In this document: one piece after another, positions 12,530-45,650 of the stretch | How positions within the stretch are numbered: position 1 is the stretch's first letter | Layout: each line of letters begins with the position of its first letter | Virus record (IMG/VR): IMGVR_UViG_3300009104_000002 | Span: 96,001-160,000 of that record | DNA: 64,000 nucleotides | Direction: 5' to 3' (one strand) | Origin: a virus | Program-made: the position numbers and the translations under genes | Notes under the pieces: generated by a model | The model's input: the letters and a program-made list of their open reading frames with translations, nothing else | What the model was told of the DNA's origin: nothing | The model's database searches: none

Positions 12530-12571
12530 TAATCTATGTCTCCTTTTGTTTATGATTTGAAATCTGTTTTT

Positions 12572-17114: not shown

Positions 17115-18842
17115 TTAGATAAGATCCTGGACAATAACCAATCCGTACATATCTGGTCGTACCATCTTCTTGGCATAACGAGTCATGACGCCTTTACGCG
17201 GCACGAAATCCTCTGTACCAAAAATGGTAGGAGTCATCTGGAGAGGCACATACGGTGCGTATACATATCCGCTTTCGAGGAAAGAAGAACCTTTACGTCC
17301 TGCGAGAACAACGTTCCGAGGGAAGTAAGGATCGACGTAAACGTCAAACTTCTTACTCAAAGAGCCGACTTTAACAGCACCAACCTGACCACGATCATCA
17401 TCGTGAGTCACAGCTCCACGGAATCCAGCGGTGAACTCAAGAAGATTTGCAACTTCTGGTGAACACACCAAAAAGTTTGCGCCTCCACGGAGAGTCTTGC
17501 GGTGAATTTGAGCCGAGACATCATTAATGGTCTCAATCAAGGTTTCATACCATTCGCTGACATTGCCGGTGAAGTCTGGGAATCCAGCTGTAGGATCCAA
17601 TGGAACTCCAGTTCCACGGTTCACAAACTTACCAGGAAGTCTAGACCAGAACAAGGTTTCAGCGGTTGCACCCTTTACGAGATCTTCCAAGATTTCTTGG
17701 TCGATTTCAAGAGCGATGTGCTCTGAAAGAACGCTTGTCAACTCAACTTCGGCATCCAAGTTATGGTATGCATTCAAATCTTGAGCCAATTCTGGCGTCC
17801 ACTTAGCCTTGAGCTTCTTGGTTTTAGCCGTAACAGAAACCGAGTCAACCTTGATATCGATTTCAGGAATCTGACTTTCATTCTCAAGTCCCCAGGTATC
17901 TAGGCCGACGACAGAGCCGAGAGCGCCGCCCTGGTTCATGTTATCATCGATGACGAAAGTTGCGTCATCATCAGCAACAAGCGTGCCAGAAAGAGCAATG
18001 GTATCGGTACCATCCGCAACAACAAGCAAGATATTTCCTGCAGTATTTGGATCGTCTCGGGTCAGGCGACGAACTTGAGTTGTATCAACAACTCCGCCGT
18101 CCTCAAGGGTAATAGTGACATAATCCTTGATATTGAACTGATCTGCAGTAAGAGTGCTCAGCGGAACAGAAACAACTGCTGCGGCTGTTCCAGAAGCAAT
18201 ATCCGGATCAAAACGCACCAAACGATCTCCAAGGGCCGCGAGAGCTGCACCAGCAGGTCCTGTACCAGACCAAGCGCTAGCATCTGATGGTCCGCCAACA
18301 GTGCCGGAAGCCATAGATAGGCCGGTAAGGGTAAGTCCACCAGTTACGGAACCAGTAGGGCTTGAGTAGCCGTTATTCAAGGAATAATAGCTTTGCTCTG
18401 CAAGGTCGCCAGCGAGCGATACGCCGCCGGTGATTTGCTGACCAACAACGCCACCACCATGAATAGAATCTCCACGTCGATAATCAAGGCGTCCAGCCAG
18501 TGGGCCGCCATAAGTAAAGTCGAGGAAGAAAATGAGTCCCGCTGGGAGGCTCATAGGTTGGACCGAAACGAGATCGTTTGCGATCAGTCCGCCAAAAACT
18601 CGGCGAACAATTGGAAATGCGACAGATGCGAAACCTTCCACATCACCGCCTGCCATTGAAGATGCTTCGCGAAGAAGCTCTTTGGCTTGATTTTCTAAAA
18701 GGCTTGCCATACCGTGCTTTCTGCGTTCATCAGAAAGCCCCTCTAAAAGACCAGTTTGTTCCCACTTGTCAACAAGTGCTGCACCTTCCTTAGAGAGATC
18801 ACGACGGACAATACCTTCGGTTAATTTATTTAAAATAGACAT
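17115..18842 (-). CDS. gp23: major capsid protein, T4 gp23 family
   Basis: VQPMSLPAGLIFFLDF, KLKAKWTPELAQDL, YAPYVPL, KGVMTRY motifs; AAGGAG SD. Confidence 0.97.
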   Translation of the reverse strand: MSILNKLTEGIVRRDLSKEGAALVDKWEQTGLLEGLSDERRKHGMASLLENQAKELLREASSMAGGDVEGFASVAFPIVRRVFGGLIANDLVSVQPMSLPAGLIFFLDFTYGGPLAGRLDYRRGDSIHGGGVVGQQITGGVSLAGDLAEQSYYSLNNGYSSPTGSVTGGLTLTGLSMASGTVGGPSDASAWSGTGPAGAALAALGDRLVRFDPDIASGTAAAVVSVPLSTLTADQFNIKDYVTITLEDGGVVDTTQVRRLTRDDPNTAGNILLVVADGTDTIALSGTLVADDDATFVIDDNMNQGGALGSVVGLDTWGLENESQIPEIDIKVDSVSVTAKTKKLKAKWTPELAQDLNAYHNLDAEVELTSVLSEHIALEIDQEILEDLVKGATAETLFWSRLPGKFVNRGTGVPLDPTAGFPDFTGNVSEWYETLIETINDVSAQIHRKTLRGGANFLVCSPEVANLLEFTAGFRGAVTHDDDRGQVGAVKVGSLSKKFDVYVDPYFPRNVVLAGRKGSSFLESGYVYAPYVPLQMTPTIFGTEDFVPRKGVMTRYAKKMVRPDMYGLVIVQDLI

Positions 18843-18858: not shown

Positions 18859-19872
18859 TTATGGTTGTCTGTTTTTCTTTATTCCAGCTAAAATCTGCAT
18901 CCGATCCACCGCAGGTGTATCTTTGCTTCTTTTTGCTTTTCTAGGTAAAGTGGCAGAGGGTTTTTCGATGGTCTCGCGTAGTGATTGTGGTTGTGCTTTA
19001 CCTGTTACACTTCCCACTGCGCCCTTAAGAGTTTCAAATATTACCTTTGCTTCTTCGATTGAATCAGATTTTGACAGAGTATCGACAATTTTAGATTTTT
19101 GTCGCTCATTCAAGGAGGTGTCTGTTAAAATCCTATTCGTATAAATTAATCTCGCGTTAGAGAGATTAACCTTTTCAATGTTTTCTTTAAATGTTTTCAA
19201 CGCCATTATCATTTTGGCGTTTTTTTCTTTGAGAGTTTTATTTTCTTCCGAAAGTCTTTCGCCAGCATCAATCAACGCTTTTACTTGCTCTTTTGCTTGC
19301 GTTGCCGATCTTCTAGCTAGCTCCATCTCTTCTTTATAGTTCATAATATCTTCTGGAGTTCCTGCCCACCCTTCTTTTTCCGGATGGATATCTACGACTA
19401 GTTCTTCCAAAATTTCATCTAAATCTGCCATATCTAAATCAATTTCTTCCTCTAGTGTCGCGTCGACGGAAACAGAAGAAATTTCATCTTCCTCGGAACG
19501 AGACGGCATATCAGTCGAGACATTGTCAACAACATCCTCATGGGAAGATGCATCACCGACAAGCTCTTCATCCATTTCAGCTAGGGCCTCTGACATTTCT
19601 TTTAGCTCTTCCATACTTAGGACAATTTCACTGTCCGATGCAGTTTCGTCTGCAGAGCCGGCAAGAGGAATATTGTCCTCAAGAGAAGAAGAAATAGATG
19701 CAGATGTATCTTCTCCAGAAATATCAAATTCCTCCTCTTGTTCCAAGAGGTTTTCCACAGCTTCTTTAATGTCCGTAGAATACTTGCTTAAAATTGCAGA
19801 TTCTGCGTTCTTTATGGCAGCCTCTTTTAAGGCCGAGGCATCAACTATTGCTTGTTCCAATAATGAAGACAT
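18859..19872 (-). CDS. prohead core scaffolding protein (gp22-like)
   Basis: acidic and coiled-coil; VNLSNARLIYTNRIL motif; basic C-terminal MQILAGIKK; directly upstream of the capsid gene. Confidence 0.8.
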   Translation of the reverse strand: MSSLLEQAIVDASALKEAAIKNAESAILSKYSTDIKEAVENLLEQEEEFDISGEDTSASISSSLEDNIPLAGSADETASDSEIVLSMEELKEMSEALAEMDEELVGDASSHEDVVDNVSTDMPSRSEEDEISSVSVDATLEEEIDLDMADLDEILEELVVDIHPEKEGWAGTPEDIMNYKEEMELARRSATQAKEQVKALIDAGERLSEENKTLKEKNAKMIMALKTFKENIEKVNLSNARLIYTNRILTDTSLNERQKSKIVDTLSKSDSIEEAKVIFETLKGAVGSVTGKAQPQSLRETIEKPSATLPRKAKRSKDTPAVDRMQILAGIKKNRQP

Positions 19873-19902: not shown

Positions 19903-19911
19903 ATAAATAGT
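19903..19911 (-). promoter_or_regulatory. putative late promoter ACTATTTAT for the scaffold-capsid operon
   Basis: exact motif ~30 nt upstream of the ATG, GGGAGA SD in between. Confidence 0.65.
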
Positions 19912-27801: not shown

Positions 27802-27810
27802 ATAAATAGT
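27802..27810 (-). promoter_or_regulatory. putative late promoter ACTATTTAT
   Basis: exact motif in a 36-nt gap, followed by GAGAGGGA SD. Confidence 0.65.
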
Positions 27811-27822
27811 CAAAAAAATAAA

Positions 27823-28245
27823 CTAAATCATGTTTTTCCAATTGTTTCCGCCGGCAATTGCCATAATTCCACTTATATCAACGCCGGGATCATCTGGAGA
27901 ATAATTTGATAGTGGGCCATTGCTTGTTTTTTGGCCTGGGGATCCGGGCCTCTTGATGGGTTCAACGTTTTCGAATATTCCCGCAAAACCACCACCGAGT
28001 GATTCTTCTAATTTTCTTTTTTTCGCACTCATGGATTGCCGAGCCTCTTCTTGAAGCTCGACTCGCTGTCTTGAGAAGTCGCGTTCTGGCTCTGGCGTCT
28101 TGGCTTCAACAATCGTTTGCTGGGAGCCAATACCAACTGCCACCTCTTTGATTAAATTTGACAAAACTCCCTCTTCAAAAATGACTTCTTTGATGCATTG
28201 CTTAATGAGGGGTTTTAAAATTTTTTGTAGTTCTTGTTTTTTCAT
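27823..28245 (-). CDS. hypothetical, possible prohead core/internal protein
   Basis: ATGA overlap with the protease gene; N-terminal KQELQKILKPLIKQCIKE helix; several (I/L)xE motifs. Confidence 0.65.
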   Translation of the reverse strand: MKKQELQKILKPLIKQCIKEVIFEEGVLSNLIKEVAVGIGSQQTIVEAKTPEPERDFSRQRVELQEEARQSMSAKKRKLEESLGGGFAGIFENVEPIKRPGSPGQKTSNGPLSNYSPDDPGVDISGIMAIAGGNNWKNMI

Positions 28246-28856
28246 TTATTATCCAAAATATTGTTCAAGGCACGATTAATCCTATCGGCTTTAGTAAAAA
28301 TGTTTGGCTCTTTATATTGCTTGCCTTCCTGCAAATTCATAAATGCATTTGGCGTGCTTGGCTCTGAGACAAAATCAAAGCAAATAAGCTGAAAATCATC
28401 TTCGACCATTGTTCCCTGTTGTCCTTCTGTGACCGAACCAAGTCCTCGCGAAGAAATACCCAATTGAACTCCCGATTCAACGAGGGATCTCAAAATCCCT
28501 CCGGATGGAGTATCGAGAATTTTAACTGTTCCCATAACTTTTGGGCCATCTGCCCAGATATTTGTAACCATGTGGCTTGCATTTTTTAGATTAATAACGG
28601 AATCGTCTGGATGATCCAGCTCGCCCAGGGCACGCCGCTCTTTGACAAGTTTTTGATATGTTTTTATCTCTCTCATAAGAGTTTGCATAGGATAAATTCT
28701 CCCATTACCATTCGGAGTCTCAGCTAGCTGCATTAACCCAGTAAGATACATGGAATTATTTTCTGTGATATCTCTCTTTTCTGCCTCTGTCAGAAGATCT
28801 TGGCAGATGCCCCCTTCGCAGAGAGCGTAGTATTCTCTTAGTAAAATTTTACTCAT
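28242..28856 (-). CDS. gp21: prohead core protease, T4 gp21 family
   Basis: RALGELDHP (His) and LGISSRGLGS (Ser) catalytic motifs; FDFVSEPSTPNA. Confidence 0.95.
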   Translation of the reverse strand: MSKILLREYYALCEGGICQDLLTEAEKRDITENNSMYLTGLMQLAETPNGNGRIYPMQTLMREIKTYQKLVKERRALGELDHPDDSVINLKNASHMVTNIWADGPKVMGTVKILDTPSGGILRSLVESGVQLGISSRGLGSVTEGQQGTMVEDDFQLICFDFVSEPSTPNAFMNLQEGKQYKEPNIFTKADRINRALNNILDNK

Positions 28857-29778: not shown

Positions 29779-30597
29779 TTATTGTAATTCCTTAACTAAA
29801 TTCTGAATTTTTAGAATTTCGTGAATAAATTTATTATCAAGAGTTCGCTTTGATGTTGATTCCAATATTTCTAAAACTTTTTTTGTTTTTTCGAACATCT
29901 CTACGTCTGATTTTATCTCTCTCGAATTTAAAGATTCAGTTACCGCCCTTCTTAATCTTGGTATTTCTTCATTTAAAAAAATTTTCATTTCAACACCATT
30001 ATCCGAAAATGACCCAATATATCTGCTTAAAAGAAGTTTTTGCTCTTCTAAAAGTTGTCCTGAGTATTTTTCATTGAATTTTTTAACGAATGTCTTATAT
30101 GTTAAATTATCAATTGGCTTTAATAAATCCCTATCCTTCTCTTCTTGACTAATCATACCGCTAACCATTTGATTTTCCAGCAATACTCTTTGTCTTGTTT
30201 TAACCCTAGGATTGAAAATTTGGAAAACTGTTGCCAAATCTTTATAGTTTGGAATAAAATTTGAAAAAACCTCCGAGGATACATTCTTATTTATCTTATT
30301 GATAATCGCACTCTGCTCTTCGAAGAGCTGTTTATGATTTATTCCCTTTTTCTGCATTCTTGATTCAAAAATAATTCTTTGGGCAGTATTTTTATCTACA
30401 TTCTTAGTATAAAGGATGGATTTATAAATTTCCAAATCTTTAGCCAAAGTAGTGTTGCCCTTAAAGTGCTCTCTTATCAGCGTCATTATCGTGCGCTTTT
30501 TATGATCATCTTTATCAATAACTGACTTTGTCAATTCTCTTATTAGCGCCTCAAAAATAAAGGCTGTATTACGCTTTTTGTTGTGTTTCATCTTCAT
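29779..30597 (-). CDS. hypothetical helical protein downstream of the portal
   Basis: 272 aa; overlaps the portal end by 29 nt; KHNKKRNT N-terminus. Confidence 0.75.
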   Translation of the reverse strand: MKMKHNKKRNTAFIFEALIRELTKSVIDKDDHKKRTIMTLIREHFKGNTTLAKDLEIYKSILYTKNVDKNTAQRIIFESRMQKKGINHKQLFEEQSAIINKINKNVSSEVFSNFIPNYKDLATVFQIFNPRVKTRQRVLLENQMVSGMISQEEKDRDLLKPIDNLTYKTFVKKFNEKYSGQLLEEQKLLLSRYIGSFSDNGVEMKIFLNEEIPRLRRAVTESLNSREIKSDVEMFEKTKKVLEILESTSKRTLDNKFIHEILKIQNLVKELQ

Positions 30598-32545
30598 TTA
30601 TCTGAATCTCCGAATTTTCTAATTCTACAATTAAATCACGAATTTCTGATTTAGCCTCGAATAGCAATGTTTCCTCGCTATTATAAGTAGGCTCTCCAAC
30701 TTCGTAAATACCCCTAGAAAGACCCATTAAATCGGACATTCCTGGGGTAATATCTTTTTGTTTTGGTATGGCCATGGCTGAATAATTGTGTTGACGGCCG
30801 GTGCGGCTGTCTCCGCCTCTAAATTTTTTAGAAACGTATTTCTTTCCCTTAGCTTTCTTGGAGAGAGATCTTTTTGTGTGTTTTCTTGAGCGATCATCTC
30901 TTTTTGCCGGAGCTGCCAAGAGGGCACCTTCGTCATCGTCGCCGGGACCCTCTCCTCCGAGATCCTCTCCACCGAGATCCTCTCCACCGAGATCAAAATC
31001 ATCTCCACCCATATCATCACCCAAATCTCCCATTTCATCAGAACCGAGTCCGAGGTCCCCACCCAAACTGGCGGCGGCCTGTTCGCCGGCGGATTCGGCG
31101 GCTGCATTCAATTCTGCCTCATACGTTCTGTCGTGAAACATTTCTCTTTGATTTCTGACAAATTCCTCTTCCGATAAATTAAAAATATTTTGAGCAATCC
31201 AGCGACGGCTAAAGAAATTCTCCGTTGCACCCCCCGCAATATCAAATTTAATTTTCCAGTGCTCTAATTCCTGCATTTCTGCTATCTTGGAGGGATTATT
31301 TAGCTTCAACCTGAAACCAACAAGATCGTCACCCCTGAAACCAAGCGTATAGAGGTGGACAATTCCTATTTTTTCAAGTTCTGCGATAACGGCGCGCTGC
31401 AACCTCTGGATTGTCCGTGCAAATCTTACGTCTTTTTGTGCTAAAGTTGTTTTATCCTCGTTAGCTCCCCCCTCCGAATCACTTGAGAGGTATGCGGACG
31501 GAATTTTCAGTGCAGCAAAGAGTTTATCTCTAAGATATTTAACATCATCAATGTCTCCAGTGAACTGTCCACCCTGCAATGTTTCGATTTTTGATGATTC
31601 ACCGCCGCGAACTGGAATGAAATAGTCCTCTTCTACCGAAAGCGGATTATAACGTAAGTCGACGCGGCCCGTATTGGCATCAACTACTTGATTTCTCTTC
31701 ATGGAAGTAATTGTTTTCTGGACAAAGGTTTCGACATCTTGCGGAGCGATGTTACCCACATCAATATAAAAAACGCGGCGCTCAGCAGAGCGAACGATGC
31801 GATAAGCCATCATTGCGTCTTCCATTAGTGTCAATTGTCTCCAAATTCTCCTTCCAGACTCAAGAACCGAAGTACCATACGGGGAGTATTTGTCATTTCC
31901 CAACACTCTAAAGTGAGCAATTTGCCAATTTTCAAAAGTCATACCGGCAGAATTCCACTGGTACTGGACATAATTGGGATTTGTTGGATCTTCTCCCTCC
32001 ATTCTCTCCACCTCTTTAAGCGGGATGGGGATTACGGATTTAATTCCAATTCTCTCGTCAATATCGAGATAAAGAATAAAATCTCCGAATTTGCACATAG
32101 ATCGGCACCAGCCATAGAGATTGTGATTAATATTTAAAATATTTTCGTATAATGACCTCAAAATAGATTTAATTTCTTCGTTTGAACACTCAACGTGCAA
32201 CATGGGAGACAATGCTGAATGAGTCGTCATCTCATCTGCATAAATATCCATAGCAGATGCAATTTCGGGCATATATTCCATCTGCTCATAGTCAATATAT
32301 CTTTCTGCCCTGTTTTGTTGTGCCATTATTTTTGAATGCATGACATCAAACGGGCTGTATTCTGATCTTCTGAATTGTTGACCCGACGCTGACCTGAATT
32401 GCGTGGAATATTTGTCCAGGGCGCTTCTTCGAATCTTCCGGTTCATTTGTGTACGCCAGTTTACAATTGGTCCGGAAAATAGTCTTGTTAGTCTTCTAAA
32501 TAATTCAGATTGTGGATTATTTGGATTCTTTTTTTGATCAGCCAT
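30569..32545 (-). CDS. gp20: portal vertex protein, T4 gp20 family
   Basis: AMMAYRIVRSAERRVFYIDVGN, EEDYFIPVRGG, DVKYLRDKLFAALKIP motifs. Confidence 0.96.
   Translation of the reverse strand: MADQKKNPNNPQSELFRRLTRLFSGPIVNWRTQMNRKIRRSALDKYSTQFRSASGQQFRRSEYSPFDVMHSKIMAQQNRAERYIDYEQMEYMPEIASAMDIYADEMTTHSALSPMLHVECSNEEIKSILRSLYENILNINHNLYGWCRSMCKFGDFILYLDIDERIGIKSVIPIPLKEVERMEGEDPTNPNYVQYQWNSAGMTFENWQIAHFRVLGNDKYSPYGTSVLESGRRIWRQLTLMEDAMMAYRIVRSAERRVFYIDVGNIAPQDVETFVQKTITSMKRNQVVDANTGRVDLRYNPLSVEEDYFIPVRGGESSKIETLQGGQFTGDIDDVKYLRDKLFAALKIPSAYLSSDSEGGANEDKTTLAQKDVRFARTIQRLQRAVIAELEKIGIVHLYTLGFRGDDLVGFRLKLNNPSKIAEMQELEHWKIKFDIAGGATENFFSRRWIAQNIFNLSEEEFVRNQREMFHDRTYEAELNAAAESAGEQAAASLGGDLGLGSDEMGDLGDDMGGDDFDLGGEDLGGEDLGGEGPGDDDEGALLAAPAKRDDRSRKHTKRSLSKKAKGKKYVSKKFRGGDSRTGRQHNYSAMAIPKQKDITPGMSDLMGLSRGIYEVGEPTYNSEETLLFEAKSEIRDLIVELENSEIQINEDETQQKA
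30957..30994. repeat. 15-bp tandem repeat (CCGAGATCCTCTCCA x2.5) encoding (D)LGGE repeats
   Basis: read directly from sequence, in the acidic tail of the portal. Confidence 0.85.
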
Positions 32546-32548
32546 TTC

Positions 32549-34138
32549 TTATCCTTTTATTAGCCATGAATATTGCTTATAGTCTTCTTTTGCCTTAAAC
32601 ATTTTTTCATCCAAGGCCTCTTTCTTATTATAACCTTCCATTCCTGGAATTGTTGTATTTATTTTTGTATTGACAGCAACCATTGAGTTTAAACAAGCTT
32701 TTTTAAATTCTATATCTCTTTTATTTACTGTTAGCGCCGTGTCTCTTACCCAGCATGCTATTGCTAATGACATTATTAAGTCATCATTATATCCCCTCAT
32801 TGCTTGAGGTTTGCCATTATGCCAGATAAAAGTGCGCAATTCGTTGGAAAAGCGAACAGAATATACTTTAATTAGTTTGTTTCTCACAAATTCTTCCAAT
32901 TTTGCCACAATAAGGGGCCGTGTTTTTAAAGAAGTAGTAAATCCCGCCACTGCGTTGGCCATTCTTTCGCCCTGGTGACTCTCTACAAACTCATGAGTGC
33001 TTTTTACGGAGTAATATAAGTTTGAATATTCTAAATCAATGAGCTTTTCAAGCACAGATATTCCAATTCCAACATTTTCCACCACCAATAAGCAGTTTCC
33101 ATATTCTTTTCCCGCTTGCATGAGGACGTTGGAGTACATATCCAAACTTGGTTTTCCTTGATATTCCGCAACAACCTCCATTGTTTCTAGTTTTATAATA
33201 TGAAACACAGAATAATCTGCGCCGTCGCCTCTGGCAACGTCTGCCACCAGCAAATAAGAACATTGAGGATCATATTCTTCCCAAATCCACATATTTCTGT
33301 CGAATCCTGCCCTATATTTAGGATCACATACCATTCCCTCTATCCAGTTAATGTCGTCTGGGTGGATCACGCTCTCACCTGATGTATTGAAGTTGCATTC
33401 TAGCTCTTGGGCTATCTCTCGGCGAGACATATTCCTTGTTTCTTTGTCGAACCAAGCCTGATCTCTGTCAGGATGGACGTCCCAGTTCAACATAATGGGA
33501 TGAAAATCGTTTGATCCCTCCGATGCCTCGCTATATGTCTTGTGAAACCAATTTCCCACACCATTTGGAGTTGATAATGCGATCACTCGACCACCAGTTG
33601 AGATTGTGGGATATAAGCCGGCCCATAATTCATCCAAATTCTCAACGTGTGCGGCCTCGTCGATCACCAGAAGAGAGAGGGCTTCAGAACGACCAGCATC
33701 GCCGGAAGTAGATGCGGCTTGGATCTGAGAGCCGTTAGAAAGTTCGAAAGATGCCCTATTGTCGATAGATATTTCCGCGATGAGAAGGAAATTCGGAATA
33801 TTTTTCATAATTGCCTTGACTTTCTTAACAAGGTTGGCCGCTGTTTTGAACTTTGTGGCCATAACGAGGATGTTTTTGTCTCTATGAAACAACATCATCC
33901 AAACAATATAGCCGGCAGCGATGGTTGAGATACCCAACTGTCGTGCTTTGAGGATTACATTAAAGCGATAATCATTAAAATCAACTAACAAATCCGCCTG
34001 ATAATCATATGTCTTGAATGGAATAAGTCCCTTGATCGGATGTGAGATTCTTGCGTAATTATTTACGAAATAGACCGGATCTTTTCCACACTTTAATATT
34101 TCAGCTACTATTTCCTTTTTGGATAGTGTGTATGACAT
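32549..34138 (-). CDS. gp17: terminase large subunit, T4 gp17 family
   Basis: LKARQLGIST Walker A, LLVIDEAAH Walker B, STPNG, VADVARGDGADYS and NDDLIMS nuclease motifs. Confidence 0.96.
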   Translation of the reverse strand: MSYTLSKKEIVAEILKCGKDPVYFVNNYARISHPIKGLIPFKTYDYQADLLVDFNDYRFNVILKARQLGISTIAAGYIVWMMLFHRDKNILVMATKFKTAANLVKKVKAIMKNIPNFLLIAEISIDNRASFELSNGSQIQAASTSGDAGRSEALSLLVIDEAAHVENLDELWAGLYPTISTGGRVIALSTPNGVGNWFHKTYSEASEGSNDFHPIMLNWDVHPDRDQAWFDKETRNMSRREIAQELECNFNTSGESVIHPDDINWIEGMVCDPKYRAGFDRNMWIWEEYDPQCSYLLVADVARGDGADYSVFHIIKLETMEVVAEYQGKPSLDMYSNVLMQAGKEYGNCLLVVENVGIGISVLEKLIDLEYSNLYYSVKSTHEFVESHQGERMANAVAGFTTSLKTRPLIVAKLEEFVRNKLIKVYSVRFSNELRTFIWHNGKPQAMRGYNDDLIMSLAIACWVRDTALTVNKRDIEFKKACLNSMVAVNTKINTTIPGMEGYNKKEALDEKMFKAKEDYKQYSWLIKG

Positions 34139-34149
34139 TTGTTATTCTT

Positions 34150-34857
34150 TTAAGATTTAACGTGCTTCTTTAAAATATGGTCCCCGATGGGAACGCTCGA
34201 AGTTTCATTGTGGTTACCTGTGAGCCACACAAATTTGCCGTCGCGGGGCTCCAGGTGCGTTTTCAAAATATCACCCTCTGCGCGTCCGTCGTATGTATTC
34301 TCGATTCCTCCGTTTATATCAGAAGTTAATGTAAGGGTCCAATAATGGTTTGAAAATCTGCCTTCTTTCAAAAACTTTTGGTATTTTACATCCACAGAAT
34401 TTGAAATTCCCTCACCAAGAGTCTCAACGTTCTTCATTCCACCAATTTTAAAAAGTTTATGACACATAACAAACGTCCTAATTCGACTCGTATTTTGCAC
34501 AATACATTTTATTTCCTCTTTTGGAGAGAGTGAAAGAGATTTCCCTGTGATTATTTTATATTCTTTTTTAAGAAAGTCCGCAATTGCATGAATTCTGCGA
34601 TCACACTCCTCTTCGAATCCAGATGCATAAACATCGGACAATTTTATATTTGCCTCATAATTAATTTGAAGCATATCTCCGATAATTTTCACCCCGAAGC
34701 CGTCTAGGACGCGAGAATCGATAATTGGACAGCCCTCCTCTCGACTTAGTCCGATTTTCTTGGCATCTCCACTTACGAAGCGTTCGTCGTGGGCGCCATC
34801 ATAGGCATTTGCGGCTGCCTGATTAATACCTTGTATAATTTCTAATGTTGTTGCCAT
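34150..34857 (-). CDS. hypothetical protein upstream of the terminase
   Basis: 235 aa; TAATG overlap; possible appended domain after FLKE. Confidence 0.75.
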   Translation of the reverse strand: MATTLEIIQGINQAAANAYDGAHDERFVSGDAKKIGLSREEGCPIIDSRVLDGFGVKIIGDMLQINYEANIKLSDVYASGFEEECDRRIHAIADFLKKEYKIITGKSLSLSPKEEIKCIVQNTSRIRTFVMCHKLFKIGGMKNVETLGEGISNSVDVKYQKFLKEGRFSNHYWTLTLTSDINGGIENTYDGRAEGDILKTHLEPRDGKFVWLTGNHNETSSVPIGDHILKKHVKS

Positions 34858-35198
34858 TATTCTTCCCTCGTGTCGGCCATTAATTGCCGGATCTTGTCTG
34901 CGAGCCTCTCGCGTTGGCCCACTGGCGTTTCTTTTCCGGAATAACGCGACACTCGCACATCGCCACTTGACAGGGCGTTGACGGCCGCGATTAAATTAAT
35001 CCAATGCTGCTCTTCTGATGTTTGTGGAGACTCTGTACTCTGGCGACCGTCGAAAGAGTCGCTAAACGGAGTTCCGCCCAGGTCAACGTCGCCACCCTCC
35101 TCCTCGCTCCAGTCCCATTTCCCACCTTTAAAACCTTCAGAAATAGATTCAAGCTCTTCTTTAATGATTTTTCTCAATTGTGATTTCGTAAGTTTCAT
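34857..35198 (-). CDS. leader-bearing protein (MKLTKSQLRKIIKEE), putative internal head protein
   Basis: GAGGA SD; leader shared with 36420-37259 and 41628-41924. Confidence 0.7.
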   Translation of the reverse strand: MKLTKSQLRKIIKEELESISEGFKGGKWDWSEEEGGDVDLGGTPFSDSFDGRQSTESPQTSEEQHWINLIAAVNALSSGDVRVSRYSGKETPVGQRERLADKIRQLMADTREE

Positions 35199-35201
35199 AA
35201 T

Positions 35202-35585
35202 TTATTCCTCTTGTTGTGGGCGCCAGCCTGCTTTCCAGCGATTTTCTCTGCCTTCGACCCATTGTATATAACATTTAAAGCAACAATCAAACTTTGTCAT
35301 GTAAACATTGTCTCGCAAATCAAAAGAAAATGAAGAACAAACCGGACAAACTCGATCCTCGTCTTTACTAAATAGTTTTTTACTTATTAAAATGCCATCA
35401 ACTTCTACTTTTTCGTTCTTTTCTCGGTATTTTACCTCTTTTTGATACAATTCGCGAAGTTGTTGCTGGTATTCTTTTTCTTTCTCGTCAGTCCAATCAG
35501 ATTTGGGGTGTTTTATAGCCTCTTTTCCATACTTCTTAGAAATGGCGATTTCATACTTGGCGATTTCGTTTAAATCTTTCTTCAT
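35202..35585 (-). CDS. hypothetical protein with C-terminal CxxC...CxxC zinc finger
   Basis: start MKKDLNE at 35585 (ATGA overlap); CPVC...CFKC. Confidence 0.7.
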   Translation of the reverse strand: MKKDLNEIAKYEIAISKKYGKEAIKHPKSDWTDEKEKEYQQQLRELYQKEVKYREKNEKVEVDGILISKKLFSKDEDRVCPVCSSFSFDLRDNVYMTKFDCCFKCYIQWVEGRENRWKAGWRPQQEE

Positions 35586-36013
35586 TTGTTTACCGCGTAA
35601 GATAATCCAACTGTTGCTCCGACTCCGACAACAAATCCTCCGATAATTCCCCACATAAGGGCGTTCTTACCGGGCTTTTTGGCGATGATTTTGTTTAATT
35701 GCTCAATCTCTGTATTTTTTATATTTAGGGTTGTCTCAAATCTTTCCCTTTCTGTGTCAATTGTAATATTTAGCTGATCTATTTTTAACTCATACTGAGC
35801 TTTTTGTTTTTCGAGTTCGAATCCCAGCTTTAGGTCGTACTCTTCTTTCAAAAACTTATTATTCGCCAATAATCTTGCCGTTGCCTCTGGATCAAAGAGA
35901 GTTCCGGTAAACGGGGCCGGCTCCCCCGCTTGAATAAAGGTAAATTTACCATCAGACGCCTGGGCTGTGTTTAAGAATCCCAAAAAGAATAACAGCAGTG
36001 CCTTATTCCACAT
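35582..36013 (-). CDS. secreted/membrane coiled-coil protein (spanin-like?)
   Basis: signal peptide MWNKALLLFFLGFLNTAQA, coiled coil, C-terminal Gly-rich TM; start reassigned to 36013. Confidence 0.55.
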   Translation of the reverse strand: MWNKALLLFFLGFLNTAQASDGKFTFIQAGEPAPFTGTLFDPEATARLLANNKFLKEEYDLKLGFELEKQKAQYELKIDQLNITIDTERERFETTLNIKNTEIEQLNKIIAKKPGKNALMWGIIGGFVVGVGATVGLSYAVNK

Positions 36014-36404
36014 ATTCAAACCCAAAAGCCTCCTCAATTTCTCTTGCCAATTCTTCTGGCTGTTCCTCGAAGTCTCGGATGAACTCTTTTATGTCCTCTT
36101 CTTTAGCCTTCTTTAAATCTTCTACCGCCTCTTCGTATTTGTCGGTTATTTCTTTTAGCTCTCTTTCATATTCTATGATTGCGGCTTCTCTTGCTGCCAA
36201 CTCTTTCTTGTGAAGTTCCTCAAGTGCGGCAATTTGCTCTTCATAGCTCGTGCTCATGACCTCCATAGACTTTCTCAAGGAGGCATAATCATTTTTTGTA
36301 ACAAAAAATAAGACAAGCATAACAACTAAGCCAACACCTTGCCAGTTTTTAATCAGAAATGAACCTGCTGACTTAAAAATGTCGCCAATGTTGATGTTAA
36401 TCAA
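36003..36404 (-). CDS. N-anchored coiled-coil membrane protein (i-spanin-like)
   Basis: TTG start with AAGGAA; TM WQGVGLVVMLVLFFV followed by a long coiled coil. Confidence 0.55.
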   Translation of the reverse strand: MININIGDIFKSAGSFLIKNWQGVGLVVMLVLFFVTKNDYASLRKSMEVMSTSYEEQIAALEELHKKELAAREAAIIEYERELKEITDKYEEAVEDLKKAKEEDIKEFIRDFEEQPEELAREIEEAFGFEYVE

Positions 36405-36419
36405 TTTTAATTCCTTTTA

Positions 36420-37259
36420 TTACCCAAAGTCCACCACTTCATCGATAGCTTCCAAGAAAGCTGCGTATGAAAGTTCGTCGTTGTATCCCATTTCGGACAG
36501 CTTCTTTTTTCGACTCTGAAAGCTTTCAATTGTGCCCTTAGGGGGAATAGTTCTTATGATTTCACCCCTGGTTTTACCGAGTTGATGGCCGTATTTGGCG
36601 ACAATGGACCTGATGTCTCGCCATGGCTTCATAGAAAGGCTCGCATAATGATTTGTGATTTCGTTTTCGAAGCCGCCAGTGAGCATCTCCAGAAATGGCA
36701 TCAGCTTATCATATCCCCCAAGATCAATGGCAGAACCAATAGTGGCAGCCCACATGTCCACAACATCGGGGTAGGTGTCCCACATATCGAGTTCGTCCTC
36801 TTTTCGGGCGCGCTTTTCTTCTTCGGTATCTTGACTGCCCTGACTTTGTGGTCGTGGGTATCCACCTTGACCTCCTTGTCCTTGCGACTCATCTTCTTCT
36901 TTGAAAAGTCTGGACAATTCCTCTTTGATGATCTTTTTGAGGTATTTTTTAGAGATATCTACTTCAATTCTAGCTGATTTCTTTTTTTCATAAAGGTGGC
37001 TATTATCGTCCGGATCCAGTATGCGCCGGAGCTTATCATATGCCCCTCTCAATGCCTCGAATTCCATCGGCACCAACCCAAAAACTCCGGCTTCGAGCTG
37101 GTGTACAAAGGTCGGTAGTGACATTCCCTCGGGCGTGCGGGGGATTGGATTGTCCGCAATATATTGTTGGATTTGTGCGATGACATCTTCATCTTCCGCC
37201 AGAATTGTTGACTTCTCCTCTTTAATAATTTCCCTAAGTTGCTTTTTTGTAATTTTCAT
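36420..37259 (-). CDS. protein with two tandem leader+cargo modules, putative internal head polyprotein
   Basis: MKITKKQLREIIKEE at the N-terminus and ISKKYLKKIIKEE internally (36918-36956); GGGAG SD. Confidence 0.75.
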   Translation of the reverse strand: MKITKKQLREIIKEEKSTILAEDEDVIAQIQQYIADNPIPRTPEGMSLPTFVHQLEAGVFGLVPMEFEALRGAYDKLRRILDPDDNSHLYEKKKSARIEVDISKKYLKKIIKEELSRLFKEEDESQGQGGQGGYPRPQSQGSQDTEEEKRARKEDELDMWDTYPDVVDMWAATIGSAIDLGGYDKLMPFLEMLTGGFENEITNHYASLSMKPWRDIRSIVAKYGHQLGKTRGEIIRTIPPKGTIESFQSRKKKLSEMGYNDELSYAAFLEAIDEVVDFG

Positions 37260-37262
37260 TTC

Positions 37263-37463
37263 TCATGCTCCCTTCAATTTAACGATTGCGTCAATTACGG
37301 ATTGACCCCCGATATATAGCGCGCTCAGAATAAGCCAATCTCCACTTTCGATATTGGAGGTAAACATCAGCGCGGTGGCCGTGACCCAAACGAGTAGTTT
37401 TCTTGAAACCACTTTTTCTAAAACTTTATCTACTGCACCTTTTGCCATTTCAGTCATTGTCAT
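37263..37463 (-). CDS. putative holin
   Basis: 66 aa; SRK motif followed by two hydrophobic helices; basic C-terminus. Confidence 0.6.
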   Translation of the reverse strand: MTMTEMAKGAVDKVLEKVVSRKLLVWVTATALMFTSNIESGDWLILSALYIGGQSVIDAIVKLKGA

Positions 37464-37482
37464 AAATTCCTTCTCAATAACT

Positions 37483-37491
37483 ATAAATAGT
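37483..37491 (-). promoter_or_regulatory. putative late promoter ACTATTTAT(A)
   Basis: exact motif in a 29-nt gap right after the Mre11-Rad50 stop. Confidence 0.65.
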
Positions 37492-37492
37492 T

Positions 37493-40400
37493 CTATTGTT
37501 GAATAAAGGCATATCCATTTTTCTTGTCAATCGTGATTTGTACATCAACACAATCTTTTAGGCTATCAAGGTGGGAAATAAGCAGGACGGTCTTAAAATA
37601 GGATCTTATCAAATCAAGAATATCAATGAATCCCTGCATATTTTCCTCATCCAATGCTGTTCCTGGCTCATCAAGAATAAAAATATCTGACTTTGGAAGA
37701 GAAGATACACTCAAAAGGGCAAGACGAATGGCCATTGCTGCAATTGTCTTCTCTGCTCCAGAACCCATCTCAAGCGGGCGCGGCTCATGGCGAGGATGTT
37801 TGATGAAGATGTCCAATCTTTTGCCATCATCTTCAAAAAAGACCTCAAAATCGACAATATTTGCTAGAATTTTTGCAATCTCTTCGTTAATAACGGGAAG
37901 CTTTCTCTTAATTACGTCATACGCGATGCCGTTCGGGTGCATAGCTCGCATATAGAGATCATATGCAGAAAATTCTTCCTGTAAATCTAAAAATTCCTCT
38001 TTTTTGGCGACAAGATTGTTTACTTTCTCCTCCAGAGACCCAACCGTTTTGTACAAAGCAAGAATTGAGGCATTACAACTCTCCATACTATTCTGAAAGT
38101 TTTGAGATTTTATTTTCAGTGTTTTCAAACTCTTTGCAAGGTTCTCAAGGTTCTCGATTACATCTTTATTCAATTCATATTCTGATACTTTTTCCTCAAG
38201 GCCTTCGATATCTTTCATCAAAGACTTCATCAAGGTTGAATTTTTCTCTATTTTCAAATCATAGTTTGTTATTTTATTAGATAGCTCGTTTCTCCTATCA
38301 AGAAGGCCATTGTATGCCTTAATCTCTTCTTCGACGCCGTCTGGATTAATTTCTTGAATATCGTCACTCAAATCATCGATTTGGTCTGTTAGGTTTTCCA
38401 CCTCTTTCTCGTTGAGTGGAATTGTTGCCTTTGCAACATAGGCGTCCTTAATAAACTTACATTTTGGAAAAGAAGTTCCACAAGGAATACCACTTAGAAG
38501 TGTTTCTTTGTTTTTATTCCTCTTTAGTTCCTCTTCCTCGGTCGATAATGAGTTCTCTAATGAAGCAATTTGATCTAAAAGGTCATTTGCTCGATCTTGC
38601 TTATCAAATAAGGATTTTACATCAAATTCCTCCAAAAATTCAATTACCCTGCGATATGTATCCCTGTCTTGATCTCTACTAAGATAAAATTCTTCATTTT
38701 GATCTGAAACAGAGATCAATTGATTCTTTTTATCGGACAAATCTTGTTGAACCTTCATAACATCAATGATTTCGGCCGGGATTGACTTGATTTTCTCGTT
38801 GATTTCTCCAATTTGACCACTACAATCTTCTAGGCCGATCTTAAAGTTCTCGCATGCTGACTTTTTCTTTTCTAACTTATTGTTTGCTTCCTCAAGATCG
38901 TCTTCGGCTGCTAAAATCTCACTGTTAAAATCTCTTCCTTCGGATTTTTTCAGTGCTCCTCTCGTATCCGAGGCATCTTCCTTTGCCAAGCGAAACTTAT
39001 GTTCAAAAAATTCAAGATCAAGGAACTTTGCAAGAATTTCTTTCCTCTTTGTTGACCCTTCCTTTATAAAAGTCAGAGAATCAAGCTGTGAGGCCATCGA
39101 CGAATATAGAAAGTCATCTAGAGTTCCAAAAACCTTGCGAATATTCTTATCTGTCTGGTTTCTTGTAAGGCCATTTAGACTCTCTGTATCTCCAAAGTTC
39201 GGGTCATACATGGTGAAATCAACATTTGTTTTCGCTTCTTGTGTTGTCTGCCCCTTGAGTTTCCTGGTATATTTTTCTGAATTTCTATCAATGTAATAAT
39301 CTGTATCACCAATGGAAATTTTAATTTTTCCACTACCATATTCCCTATTCTGGTTAATAATATTTAGGTTTTTTCGATCATTTTTGGATGTCGAATTAAA
39401 AATGGTGTACAAAATTGAATCAATGATACTAGATTTGCCGGAAAAATTCTTTCCGAAAATACCAACGATCCCCTCAATATTATCAAAATTTATACTGTTT
39501 CCCTCTCCGTAGTTAAAGAGATTATTCCATTCAACTGATCGCAACCTCCAATTAATATTTCTGGAAACCTCCTCCTTCTCTTCTGCAATTTTATTATATT
39601 TCAGATTTAAATCCAAAACTCTTTTCATTAATTCTTCATCAACTTCAAAATCCTTTAAATATTCTTTGATTAATTCCTCCTGAATTTGGATATTTCGAAG
39701 ATCCTCTGTTTCGAGACCATCCGTAATATTCTGAACATCTCCCCGCTGACCAGTTGCACGATTTAAGAATGTAATACTCTCTGGCTTAAATCTTCGCTTT
39801 GCCACCTCGACTGCTTTTCTCATAACATCTAGCGGCAAATTATTGTTTGAAACAAGTCGTAGGCGAGCGGTGGAGGGAATTTTTTTGGATGCATTTCGGG
39901 GCATCTTCCCCTTCGGGGTCAATTCAATTGTTACAAAAGGCCTCGGATTTTTAAGCTCAATATGGCGACAAATAAAGTCTTCTTTATCTTGAATGTCCCA
40001 TAGTAAGATTCCCTTATCGTTTGTTTCTCCATGATTCTGTTGAATTGTTGACCCACAGTACCTAATCCTCCCCTCTTTGTCCAATGATTGATTTGTTTTA
40101 TGAATATCTCCCAAAAAGCCATAATCATGACCTTCGAAAATCTCAATTGGATGCTCGCCGTGAGTCATTACCCACCCAGTATCCGTGACGACGCCCGAGA
40201 CAGATCCGTGATAAAGTGCAATATTAATTCTGTTCGGATTTGATGGCTCAGCCCACCCACCTTCGTCGAAAACAGACAAAACATTTAGCGTTACATTTCC
40301 CCGTAGGGGGATTTCGCCGGATTTCTTAAGTAAGTGTAGGTTTTTGTGTGCCAAAGCCTCCACGATGGGTGTCAGGGCGTCCTGACGGCTGCTATTGCGC

Positions 40401-40651
40401 AGGTTTCCGTCGTGATTTCCCAAAATAACGTAAGTTGGCGCAATATCAGCAAGTGAGCTTAAAAATTCAGAGCACATTTCCACGAACTCTGGGCTGATTT
40501 GTGTCTTGGTGTGAGCAATGTCGCCACAATGGACAATATAATCTGGCCTCTCCTTTCTCAAAATGTCGTACAGCTTGTCAAAAACAATCCTATACTCGTA
40601 ATGATATTTTAAATTTTTAATGTGGGTATCTGCTATGTGGGCAAACTTCAA
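37493..40651 (-). CDS. fused Mre11/SbcD (gp47-like) nuclease and Rad50/SbcC (gp46-like) ATPase
   Basis: DTH, GD, GNHD, YHG, GDIH phosphoesterase motifs; GKNFSGKSS Walker A, coiled coil, GSGAEK signature, ILDEP Walker B, ISH; TTG start with AGGAG SD. Confidence 0.92.
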   Translation of the reverse strand: MKFAHIADTHIKNLKYHYEYRIVFDKLYDILRKERPDYIVHCGDIAHTKTQISPEFVEMCSEFLSSLADIAPTYVILGNHDGNLRNSSRQDALTPIVEALAHKNLHLLKKSGEIPLRGNVTLNVLSVFDEGGWAEPSNPNRINIALYHGSVSGVVTDTGWVMTHGEHPIEIFEGHDYGFLGDIHKTNQSLDKEGRIRYCGSTIQQNHGETNDKGILLWDIQDKEDFICRHIELKNPRPFVTIELTPKGKMPRNASKKIPSTARLRLVSNNNLPLDVMRKAVEVAKRRFKPESITFLNRATGQRGDVQNITDGLETEDLRNIQIQEELIKEYLKDFEVDEELMKRVLDLNLKYNKIAEEKEEVSRNINWRLRSVEWNNLFNYGEGNSINFDNIEGIVGIFGKNFSGKSSIIDSILYTIFNSTSKNDRKNLNIINQNREYGSGKIKISIGDTDYYIDRNSEKYTRKLKGQTTQEAKTNVDFTMYDPNFGDTESLNGLTRNQTDKNIRKVFGTLDDFLYSSMASQLDSLTFIKEGSTKRKEILAKFLDLEFFEHKFRLAKEDASDTRGALKKSEGRDFNSEILAAEDDLEEANNKLEKKKSACENFKIGLEDCSGQIGEINEKIKSIPAEIIDVMKVQQDLSDKKNQLISVSDQNEEFYLSRDQDRDTYRRVIEFLEEFDVKSLFDKQDRANDLLDQIASLENSLSTEEEELKRNKNKETLLSGIPCGTSFPKCKFIKDAYVAKATIPLNEKEVENLTDQIDDLSDDIQEINPDGVEEEIKAYNGLLDRRNELSNKITNYDLKIEKNSTLMKSLMKDIEGLEEKVSEYELNKDVIENLENLAKSLKTLKIKSQNFQNSMESCNASILALYKTVGSLEEKVNNLVAKKEEFLDLQEEFSAYDLYMRAMHPNGIAYDVIKRKLPVINEEIAKILANIVDFEVFFEDDGKRLDIFIKHPRHEPRPLEMGSGAEKTIAAMAIRLALLSVSSLPKSDIFILDEPGTALDEENMQGFIDILDLIRSYFKTVLLISHLDSLKDCVDVQITIDKKNGYAFIQQ

Positions 40652-40660
40652 ACTTTTCTC

Positions 40661-41584
40661 CTATAAGTCAAAAATTGCAGATACTAAAGAATCCTCTTCT
40701 CTAATAACTGGCGCATCTTGACTTAATTTTTCTACTTCTTCTTTGGACATATCGCCTACGTCCCTCTCATCATCATACTGCAGTTCGCGGACTTCGATTC
40801 CGTACTTAAAAAGCAATCTTTTGATGTTTTCAGCTTTGTATTTTGCATCTGGGTCTAATGCCAACAAAACCGGCGTATTGTTCTTGACTATCTTTTTGAA
40901 TAGTCTAGATGTTTCTCTAATTGTTGAGCCCAAAATAGGAACTGCGTTATCTGCTTTGACAGCATCAAACGCTCCTTCAACAATTGTGACCTCTTTATCA
41001 AAATCAACATACAATTCATTGAATACTATGTCGCGACTGACTGGAGGATTTTTATATCTTCTATAATCGTCTGTAAATGTTCTTGCTATGAAATAATTTA
41101 AGTCTCCATTTTCATTAAATGATGGGATTATGATCCTTCCCTTGAATGGGCCATCGGAACAAAAGCCAATTTTCCATTTTAGGATGTCCTTTCTTGTAAT
41201 GCCTCGTTTTTCAAGGTACCCCAATGGTACCCTAAATTTGCAATTTCCAGTCAAAGTATGAAAATTTGGTGGCATTTCTATAATCTGCTCAATTTTATCC
41301 TCTTCGATCTCTTCAAAAAGACTTTCAAATTCATTTAAGTCTGTTTTCTCACCAGAAAATGCCTTCCAAGCCTCTTGATCCCTGTGTGATCCGAACTTGC
41401 GAACCAATCGATAAAGATTCCTTCCTTTTTCGTCGCAAACCCAGCACTTGTAAACACCGCGCTGGATATTGACAGAGAATTTCCTCTTGTGATGCTTACA
41501 AAACGGGCATTTAAACAAATGCTCGTTGTTTGATTTATAAGATTTCCCAAGGAAGCCAATTATAATCGAAAGCTTTTCGTCCAT
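40661..41584 (-). CDS. DNA primase-like protein (Zn ribbon + TOPRIM)
   Basis: CPFC...CWVC, GRIIIP, EGAFD and LDPD motifs. Confidence 0.8.
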   Translation of the reverse strand: MDEKLSIIIGFLGKSYKSNNEHLFKCPFCKHHKRKFSVNIQRGVYKCWVCDEKGRNLYRLVRKFGSHRDQEAWKAFSGEKTDLNEFESLFEEIEEDKIEQIIEMPPNFHTLTGNCKFRVPLGYLEKRGITRKDILKWKIGFCSDGPFKGRIIIPSFNENGDLNYFIARTFTDDYRRYKNPPVSRDIVFNELYVDFDKEVTIVEGAFDAVKADNAVPILGSTIRETSRLFKKIVKNNTPVLLALDPDAKYKAENIKRLLFKYGIEVRELQYDDERDVGDMSKEEVEKLSQDAPVIREEDSLVSAIFDL

Positions 41585-41590
41585 ATTAAT

Positions 41591-41619
41591 AATATAACAT
41601 GAATACCACTGCGTGTCAA
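41591..41619 (-). promoter_or_regulatory. sigma70-type promoter TTGACA-N17-TATATT with TG extended -10
   Basis: -35 at 41619-41614, -10 at 41596-41591, 6 nt before the primase ATG. Confidence 0.8.
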
Positions 41620-41627
41620 GGATTATT

Positions 41628-41924
41628 TTAATTTGGTGATTGCGATTGAGACCTGTCCCTTATACGGAATAATAGGGCTTGAAGATGTTGTCTATATTTA
41701 TTTAGATCATCCGATTCTGCAATTTTTATTAGGAGTTCCTCAACATCCTGAATAATTGCTCTCTCCCTATTCGAGACGTCGCCGCCCAGAGTTTCTCCGG
41801 AACGAATAGATTTTGATCGCTCCCTTTCTGATGATGCAAGTGCACTCTTTGTTACACCAGTGGCGCCGATTCTCCCCATTTCTTCATTAATGATATTAAT
41901 CAAATCTTTTTTAGATATTTTCAT
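41628..41924 (-). CDS. leader-bearing protein (MKISKKDLINIINEE), putative internal head protein
   Basis: AAGGAG SD; shared leader; helical cargo. Confidence 0.7.
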   Translation of the reverse strand: MKISKKDLINIINEEMGRIGATGVTKSALASSERERSKSIRSGETLGGDVSNRERAIIQDVEELLIKIAESDDLNKYRQHLQALLFRIRDRSQSQSPN

Positions 41925-41929
41925 CTTAA

Positions 41930-42445
41930 CTAACTCCTTTCCTGTAATAAATAGTGCCCTGCACGAGCAACTACCACAGCGTCAGCAATATCGTAGCAGT
42001 ATTTCTGAACGTTGCCGTGTCTTGTATAAATTATTTCGAACTCTTCGCTTTCAATAAAATGTTCCATGACAACTTCTTTGGCTTTTTTGCCCTTGGCTAC
42101 CTTTATTCCACATTTTGATCTTGCCGAGATGGGAGTTATATAGTTTGGCTCCATATCGAAGAGTTGATAGGACTGCCAGGATACAATTCCATTGAATCTC
42201 TGGAGAACGGACATTGTTTTTGCCGTTGAGCCTCCTCTGCGGAAGAACATGAGAGCTTGCTCAATAAAGATGTGCTCGATATTGTGATTCTTCTTTATTT
42301 CTTTCAGGGAATCTTCAACTTTTCGGGCCTTTTCAAAGAAGTTTCCAACTTTTCGCAAGTCAATGTACTCCGTATGAACGATTTTGTTATCGTTCATGAC
42401 GCATACTCCGACTATGCTTGTGCTTATGTCTAATCCTAATATCAC
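41930..42445 (-). CDS. RuvC-like Holliday junction resolvase
   Basis: ILGLDIST, IFIEQ and DIADAVVVA acidic motifs; GTG start overlapping the upstream TAG. Confidence 0.8.
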   Translation of the reverse strand: MILGLDISTSIVGVCVMNDNKIVHTEYIDLRKVGNFFEKARKVEDSLKEIKKNHNIEHIFIEQALMFFRRGGSTAKTMSVLQRFNGIVSWQSYQLFDMEPNYITPISARSKCGIKVAKGKKAKEVVMEHFIESEEFEIIYTRHGNVQKYCYDIADAVVVARAGHYLLQERS

Positions 42446-43621: not shown

Positions 43622-43630
43622 ATAAATAGT
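43622..43630 (-). promoter_or_regulatory. putative late promoter ACTATTTAT
   Basis: exact motif 7 nt before ATG 43614; no SD. Confidence 0.6.
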
Positions 43631-45641: not shown

Positions 45642-45650
45642 ATAAATAGT
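45642..45650 (-). promoter_or_regulatory. putative late promoter ACTATTTAT
   Basis: exact motif ~32 nt upstream of ATG 45609, GAGGA SD in between. Confidence 0.65.

Follow-up and report, generated by a model that had tools for sequence, protein, structure and literature searches.

A portable N-terminal peptide tag on unrelated proteins of a marine T4-type phage: a candidate signal for capsid targeting and protease release

The DNA considered here (the window; 64,000 nucleotides, bases 96001-160000 of a genome of 190,479 bp) belongs to an uncultured marine T4-type myovirus recorded in IMG/VR as IMGVR_UViG_3300009104_000002, whose large terminase shares 48% identity with its counterpart in Flavobacterium phage vB_FspM_immuto and 44% with the one in Microcystis phage Mel-JY01. 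Three genes in the window, designated C, D and E, encode proteins that all start with the sequence MK(I/L)(T/S)KxxLxxIIxEE, referred to below as the tag. A preliminary description of the window had pointed out this 15-residue leader and the unrelatedness of the sequences behind it, and had proposed a plug-in signal that takes exchangeable cargo proteins into the phage head, to be released there by a T4-type protease. The leader was confirmed on all three genes, and a search of the whole genome in all six frames, by regular expression and then by profile, added two tagged genes (A and B) and one internal copy in D (Table 1). The six copies score 31–37 bits against 7.4 bits for the next best six-frame match, and are therefore not due to chance. 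BLASTP found no similarity among the bodies of the five tagged proteins, as had been claimed for the first three, and the five genes lie in five different neighbourhoods with no neighbouring gene in common. Overall, the observation is confirmed and its interpretation partly supported.

Table 1. Tagged genes and other features of the genome (aa, amino acids; nt, nucleotides)
Feature	Record	Coordinates	Strand	Remarks
Tagged gene A, 120 aa	G000, outside window	24555-24917		N-terminal copy (profile)
Tagged gene B, 139 aa	G000, outside window	26798-27217		N-terminal copy (profile)
Tagged gene C, 113 aa	window	34857..35198	-	tag (residues 1-21, last three I-S-E), then an acidic, disordered linker and two helices at the C-terminus
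Tagged gene D, 279 aa	window	36420..37259	-	tag, cargo 1, internal tag, cargo 2
Internal tag copy in D	window	36906..36962	-	residues 100-118; Met-Lys replaced by Val-Asp, core intact; 34.5 bits
Tagged gene E, 98 aa	window	41628..41924	-	cassette between RuvC-like gene and primase gene
ACTATTTAT promoter-like motif	window	41947..41955	-	22 nt upstream of E start
ACTATTTAT motif	window	37483..37491	-	head of operon holding D and, further down, C
Further ACTATTTAT sites	window	27802-27810, 19903-19911, 43622-43630, 45642-45650
Major capsid protein (T4 gp23 type)	window	17115..18842	-	predicted maturation site L-R-E59|A60
Scaffold-like protein, 337 aa, acidic, helical	window	18859..19872	-	upstream of capsid gene; preceded by ACTATTTAT
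Two fibre-like genes	window	22352-27786	-	501 and 1309 aa
140-aa head-module protein	window	27823..28245	-	directly after protease; I-K-E-V-I-F-E-E at residues 18-25
Prohead protease, Peptidase_S77 (T4 gp21 type)	window	28242..28856	-	Pfam 2e-28; PHROG head maturation protease 2e-55
272-aa protein after portal gene	window	29779..30597	-	F-E-A-L-I-R-E at residues 15-21, same core pattern as tag
T4-type portal protein	window	30569..32545	-	PF07230 (Portal_T4), 4e-75
Large terminase	window	32549..34138	-	gene C one gene upstream
Probable lysis cassette	window	35582-37463	-	D inserted after first gene
Mre11/Rad50-like gene	window	37493-40651	-	1052 aa
Second-tag genes	G000, outside window (loci L151, L152)	10337-10828, 10825-11898, 11895-12644, 66879-67874		163-357 aa
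768-aa protein	G000:C1	6924-9230 (L151:924-3230)	-

The tag is widespread among uncultured phages. A scan of IMG/VR with a degenerate, back-translated DNA pattern, the counts from which are lower bounds, found it in at least 119 stretches; the matches listed hold 183 tagged open reading frames (ORFs), 165 of them complete, with a median length of 104 amino acids and often two to five in tandem. When a 40-column tag profile was scored against 1.84 billion cluster representatives (clusters at 50% identity), 12,105 protein clusters matched at E ≤ 0.001, and the 188 library proteins at E ≤ 1e-10 carry two to four tag copies each. Complete relatives have 12, 6 and 25 copies, with an array of around 15 in the 288-kb genome among them, and diverged versions occur in an uncultured phage of 484 kb (GenBank LR756508). 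The tagged proteins found are all named ‘hypothetical’ and cultured phages are the source of none of them. The cultured Flavobacterium phage immuto (NC_055915, L126; host Flavobacterium sp. LMO8) has short versions of it (MKKSQLRQIIKEAL, MKKSELVKLIKEEL and MKKSQIVKAVQEVLEE, at 3260, 14154 and 24321), which are carried by gp080, gp095 and gp072. A tblastn search of 50,697 cultured-phage records with one typical tagged protein returned nothing useful, profile searches of T4, Mel-JY01, HTVC008M, Syn9 and S-PM2 were empty, with one chance-level match in P-SSM2, and the core hexapeptides, looked for in full-text literature, turned up in no relevant paper. T4 offers a known example of the concept; there appears to be no earlier description of this particular tag, of its scale, of its arrays and fusions or of its evolution by cassettes.

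Comparison of related phages bears out the proposal of a plug-in tag on exchangeable cargos. The 161 tagged proteins taken from the matches listed form 141 cargo clusters, 129 of them singletons, and at the gene C slot, directly downstream of a conserved zinc-ribbon gene, five different cargos are found behind the tag in different phages. The DNA of the window and that of a close relative (L118) are near-identical through the upstream gene and the first 16-17 tag codons, and then cannot be aligned up to the next start codon. This is replacement of a cargo behind an intact tag, and as such a clean example, between near-identical phages, of modular evolution at a peptide boundary. In a relative with ~90% protein identity (L001), D and E are both absent and their flanking genes abut, so that the RuvC-like gene directly meets the primase gene at the E site; the same relative has one more tagged gene, located after C, with no counterpart in this genome. 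The E cassette comes complete with a promoter motif and supplants the final few codons of the RuvC-like gene. With cargo swaps, gain and loss of cassettes over so short a distance and thousands of unrelated cargos, a modular tag with exchangeable cargo is strongly supported by these comparative data. The cargos, which range from 60 to more than 300 amino acids, are with few exceptions related neither to one another nor to known families.

Since the tag marks the left boundary of the cargo swap, the 45-66 nucleotides that encode it might matter as nucleic acid, either as a recombination arm or as a translation-initiation enhancer (A-rich codons after ATG can favour initiation), with the peptide being incidental. 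Synonymous sites, however, vary freely: all six leucine codons are used at L8, and codons for identical residues agree at the third position with a frequency of only 0.55. Selection therefore acts at the level of protein. Internal copies that have lost the methionine, moreover, retain the core. A DNA-level explanation is scarcely credible, and we reject it on the codon evidence.

The picture of a 15-residue N-terminal leader stands in that the tag opens all five genes, but requires amendment in two respects. First, the tag is not confined to N-termini, internal copies being common. Among 277 internal copies in database proteins, methionine is kept in 67%, the median spacing is 137 amino acids (about one gene length) and the residues in front are typically (G/E)-E-x-K, that is, a Shine–Dalgarno region read in frame. 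The multi-copy proteins are in-frame fusions of tandem cassettes. Fusion would do no harm provided that each tag brings a cut site of its own, and fits less easily with a signal dependent on a free N-terminus.

Second, the tag is some 22 residues long rather than 15. Conservation was assessed on 171 non-redundant copies among the matches listed in the IMG/VR scan. Conservation is also seen at positions that the search pattern had left free (Q7, K/R9, Q10, K/R13 and position 16, which is hydrophobic), and reaches residue 22 before dropping to ~0.3 bits in a stretch rich in Gly, Asp, Ser and Pro. In 57% of the tags there is a second hydrophobic-x-Glu ending at residue 21 or 22, compared with 2.1% per cargo position; five of the six copies in this genome have it, and tag and E21 of gene C are kept in four of four close homologues. 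In the 43 copies found by the profile, L8 and I12 are each present 43 times, E14 42 times, I11 39 times and E15 only 31 times, and the putative cleavage motif I12-x-E14 is intact in 42 of the 43. Nor is the tag part of a known full-length domain: no Pfam family covers it, and among 120 tagged proteins only sub-threshold S_100 helix matches were seen.

A conserved leader ahead of a variable body could also be read by some other modifying or sorting enzyme, as in ribosomally synthesised and post-translationally modified peptides, or by a dedicated chaperone. We consider this very unlikely. No gene is common to the surroundings of the five tagged genes, arrays in relatives are made up of tagged genes only and cargos of the sizes given above are not peptide-like.

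The gp21 homologue reported in the preliminary description is present (Table 1), and has the sequence L-L-R-E near its own N-terminus. In the major capsid protein, L-R-E59|A60 followed by G-G-D aligns with the L-T-E65|A66 of T4 gp23 and its G-G-D, and the protease therefore probably keeps the specificity of its T4 counterpart. Peptidase_S77 was found in 20 of the 29 tag-bearing records searched, including all three of those that are at least 90% complete, the nine without it being 11-62% complete. The association between tag and protease is thus strong but confounded with phylogeny.

In T4, the tags as read from the T4 DNA take the form MKTYQEFIAE followed by Ala in internal proteins IPII and IPIII, whilst IPI starts MKTFKEF, with the cut falling at residue 19, behind I-T-E. 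Asp at the T4 cut site prevents processing. In the IPIII tag, targeting depends on residues 4 and 7 and processing on residues 8 and 10 (PMC9026906). The four T4 residues, Y4, F7, I8 and E10, have the same spacing as L8, I11, I12 and E14 here, namely hydrophobic-x-x-hydrophobic-I-x-E. Both systems place a short N-terminal peptide (14-22 residues here, 10-19 in T4) on unrelated small proteins (median 104 amino acids here, 95-193 in T4) in a phage that encodes a gp21-type protease; in both, the tags end in (I/L)-x-E and the genes are scattered and vary between relatives. They differ in scale, with 5-25 genes per genome and 12,105 clusters here as against three genes in T4, and in that the present system has tandem arrays, in-frame multi-unit fusions and mostly acidic cargos, whereas T4 cargos are basic. 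The T4 system has been studied experimentally and the present one is known from sequence alone. The tag is most likely a functional equivalent of the T4 capsid targeting sequence that is not detectably homologous to it. That the T4 sequence might allow T4-like phages to pack various proteins has been suggested before (PMC9026906).

Clues to the timing of expression come from the promoter-like motif ACTATTTAT, which three of the five tagged genes (A, B and E) have 20-22 nucleotides ahead of their start codons. It also precedes the genes for the tail sheath (PHROG 4e-66), a tube-like protein, a fibre-like protein and two structural-looking proteins, as well as the scaffold-like/capsid operon, and it occurs 23 times on the coding strand as against five times on the other. 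Upstream of tagged genes in relatives, CTATTTA is the most enriched 7-mer (15 of 177 regions among the matches listed, 1.3 expected). We regard ACTATTTAT as a likely late promoter; it differs from the T4 late promoter TATAAATA.

These promoter-like motifs, and the positions of the tagged genes, bear on whether the tag might instead be a docking helix for a hub outside the capsid (RNA polymerase, the replisome, the membrane or a chaperone) and be neither cleaved nor packaged. It is a charged amphipathic helix of a generic kind, of which the weak S-100 matches show how common such helices are, A, B and E sit among non-structural genes and the acidic, partly disordered cargos resemble many early host-takeover proteins. 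Docking of this kind does not, however, account for a promoter-like motif shared with sheath, capsid and fibre genes, for the presence of S77 in every complete tag-bearing genome or for a gene C slot that stays beside the terminase/portal/protease module across relatives, and it leaves the sharp end of conservation at a hydrophobic-x-E unexplained. It seems to us fairly unlikely.

The reading that we favour, at a probability of roughly one in two, is that the tag is a capsid-targeting propeptide with protease release, used by a large clade of uncultured aquatic T4-type phages. The tagged genes would be transcribed late, together with the virion genes. An N-terminal amphipathic helix (residues ~1-20, with I3, L8, I11, I12, L16 and L19/20 on its hydrophobic face) would dock each protein on the scaffolding core during prohead assembly, and the S77 prohead protease would cut after Glu at I12-x-E14, at the second hydrophobic-x-Glu at residue 21/22, or at both, freeing the cargo inside the head. 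Fused tag-cargo units would be tolerated because each tag holds its own cut site. Mature cargos would remain with the DNA and may enter the host with it. Complex prediction of tag alignment A2 with the 337-residue scaffold-like and 140-residue head-module proteins gave a score of 0.00 in runs made without controls, and so tells us nothing either way about binding.

The link to a T4-type head protease thus stands on indirect grounds (the co-occurrence with S77, the I-x-E motif, the second hydrophobic-x-E and the promoter motif shared with virion genes), but not as homology, and several points weigh against capsid targeting. The tag profile finds nothing in the T4 genome even at E ≤ 10, and the likeness to the T4 tag is therefore one of pattern, with homology not detectable. 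T4, Syn9, S-PM2, P-SSM2, HTVC008M and Mel-JY01 all have S77 without the tag, and because the tag is confined to one T4-type clade the association with S77 may be phylogenetic hitch-hiking. Hydrophobic-x-Glu is a low-information motif, and gene E lacks the second cut site. L8, I11, I12 and E14 were fixed in the DNA pattern that gathered most of the copies from which the profile was built; pattern and profile favour the same residues, so that the invariance of these four is partly circular. The proposed late-promoter role of ACTATTTAT derives solely from the genes that lie downstream of the motif. Finally, the cargos are mostly acidic (median isoelectric point (pI) 5.1; 65% below 6, ~20% basic), whereas mature T4 IPI-III have pI values of 9.0-9.7.

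The composition of the cargos suggests a further possibility, that tagged proteins are packaged and cut as auxiliary scaffold or filler, to be degraded and expelled before DNA entry, and are not effectors. There is a precedent in T4 gp22, gp67 and gp68, which are cut to pieces and mostly leave the head (PMC9026906). Many cargos are acidic, of low complexity and poorly structured, like the 337-residue scaffold-like protein (a call made on position and composition, there being no family match), and core-pattern sites occur in head-module proteins too. The extreme diversity of the cargos and the fast turnover of cassettes at ~90% identity, on the other hand, fit arms-race proteins better, the basic fifth of the cargos is at odds with such a role and some tagged or tag-fused proteins have enzyme-like motifs (HExxH, an S-adenosylmethionine (S-AdoMet) lyase domain). 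On balance we think it improbable that the cargos are sacrificial.

If capsid targeting is nonetheless correct, what the cargos do is a separate matter. Pfam and PHROG searches with C, D and E gave no family match, D and E have no relatives that we could find beyond the tag, the AlphaFold model of C has a predicted local distance difference test (pLDDT) value of only 52, too poor for a fold search, and the Atlas model of D is likewise poor (pLDDT 0.44), with no usable structural neighbour. The cargos are as unrecognisable as was first thought, and because no window cargo matches any family or fold, an anti-defence or host-takeover role is pure conjecture. Alt-like ADP-ribosyltransferases (PF03496), sought as a positive control in 30 tag-bearing records, were not found. 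It is possible, if rather doubtful, that the tag labels a whole ‘ejectome’ of a globally abundant aquatic T4-type clade, with more than 12,000 dark protein families being loaded, trimmed and injected ahead of gene expression and evolving as swapped promoter-tag-cargo cassettes; many of them would act against host defences or in host takeover, and acidic DNA mimics and metallopeptidase-like enzymes may be among them.

Propeptides on ejection or inner-body proteins are known from phages phiKZ, 201phi2-1 and SPN3US, where a gp21-related protease cuts at (S/A)-x-E (PMC9026906, PMC5694885), and these propeptides carry redundant cut sites (PMC9026906). As proposed here, many head-internal proteins are processed after Glu in the giant phages, and the redundant sites resemble the two sites of the tag; unlike the tag, the propeptides are not one shared portable sequence, and the cut motif differs at P3. 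Encapsulin cargo-loading peptides are likewise short and portable and bring unrelated cargos into an HK97-fold shell, but they are usually C-terminal and bind the shell protein, and their use involves no removal by a protease, no DNA and no injection.

Were the tag a capsid-targeting propeptide, the packaged and probably injected proteins of very abundant marine and freshwater phages would be predictable from sequence, and more than 12,000 protein families now without annotation would gain a cellular address. It would also mean that what T4 does with three internal proteins is done in these phages with as many as 25 per genome, arrays and polyprotein-like fusions included, and foreign proteins could be loaded into T4-type capsids other than those of E. 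coli phages by means of a natural, portable tag and its matching protease.

Sequences with the same core spacing occur elsewhere in this genome. The core pattern is found within the first 30 residues of 30 genes in the whole genome (10.4 expected), among them two head-module proteins. The 140-residue head-module protein had been described as opening with a looser version of the leader; the profile does not detect it there, and only the core hydrophobic-x-x-hydrophobic-I-x-E-E is present, within residues 18-25. A second tag, MKLL(M/L/I)ENW(K/R)x(Y/F)(L/I)(N/K)E, is carried by four unrelated proteins and has the core residues W8, Y/F11, L/I12 and E14. The 768-residue protein, which opens with MKSEDFKNILRE and shows the core pattern as well, has a metallopeptidase-like motif, H-E-L-V-H, at its other end; it matched no family or PDB entry.

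One of the four proteins with the second (type-B) tag belongs to a family of about 30 homologues that is invariant in the tag, in an HExxH motif and in an N-S-T-E-E-I-Q-A-R block, and is a putative metallopeptidase of unrecognised fold. The model of this HExxH protein (pLDDT 79) is the only confident model of a tagged protein. Residues 1-13 of the tag have pLDDT values below 50 in this model, as expected for what would be a flexible appendage. Foldseek found no match for the model at E ≤ 0.001, the best VIA result (Z 6.4) concerned a helical bundle only and PDB sequence searches were empty. Two leads from the Atlas, LPD23 and a SprT-like metallopeptidase, fell below the reliable range.

Other tag-like arrangements came to light in passing. 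Genes A and B (L006 5115-9217, equivalent to G000:C1 23115-27217) lie within a cluster of highly charged, low-complexity proteins, two of which begin with truncated tag-like sequences (MAIKIKIIKEE and MPKKKILIKILKE). A third shared tag, ME(N)FDLKKFLVENKL, is found in phage immuto on three proteins (gp076, gp077 and gp092; positions 4772, 18597 and 19598), of which one is annotated as cob(I)alamin adenosyltransferase and one is encoded immediately upstream of the terminase. In a complete relative (L148; G004:C1 146500-148330), a single open frame of ~655 amino acids comprises an S-AdoMet lyase domain (Pfam 4.9e-13), a Cys-rich region, an internal tag copy and a basic, Cys-rich cargo; the lyase domain is similar to the T3 SAMase, an anti-restriction activity. 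Three tagged genes occur on a 17-kb contig (L049, IMGVR_UViG_GVMAG-S-1030632-100_000001) binned as a giant-virus metagenome-assembled genome. Its other ORFs match ATPase families of prokaryotic viruses, so that the contig, probably a mis-binned phage fragment, is not evidence for the tag in eukaryotic viruses.

Some features of the window itself also deserve mention. Gene D is inserted in a probable lysis cassette, between the first gene, which encodes a holin-like 66-residue membrane protein, and that for a 133-residue Rz-like spanin (PHROG 2e-4); a third member, of 151 residues, has a signal-like N-terminus and a C-terminal membrane helix. The two large fibre-like proteins have a common N-terminus, MSR(Y/F)RPSR, and their genes separate the protease module from the scaffold/capsid genes, which breaks up the order of head genes that is usual in T4. 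Lastly, an Mre11-like phosphoesterase and a Rad50/SMC-like ATPase, the products of two genes in T4 (47 and 46), are encoded here by a single ORF.

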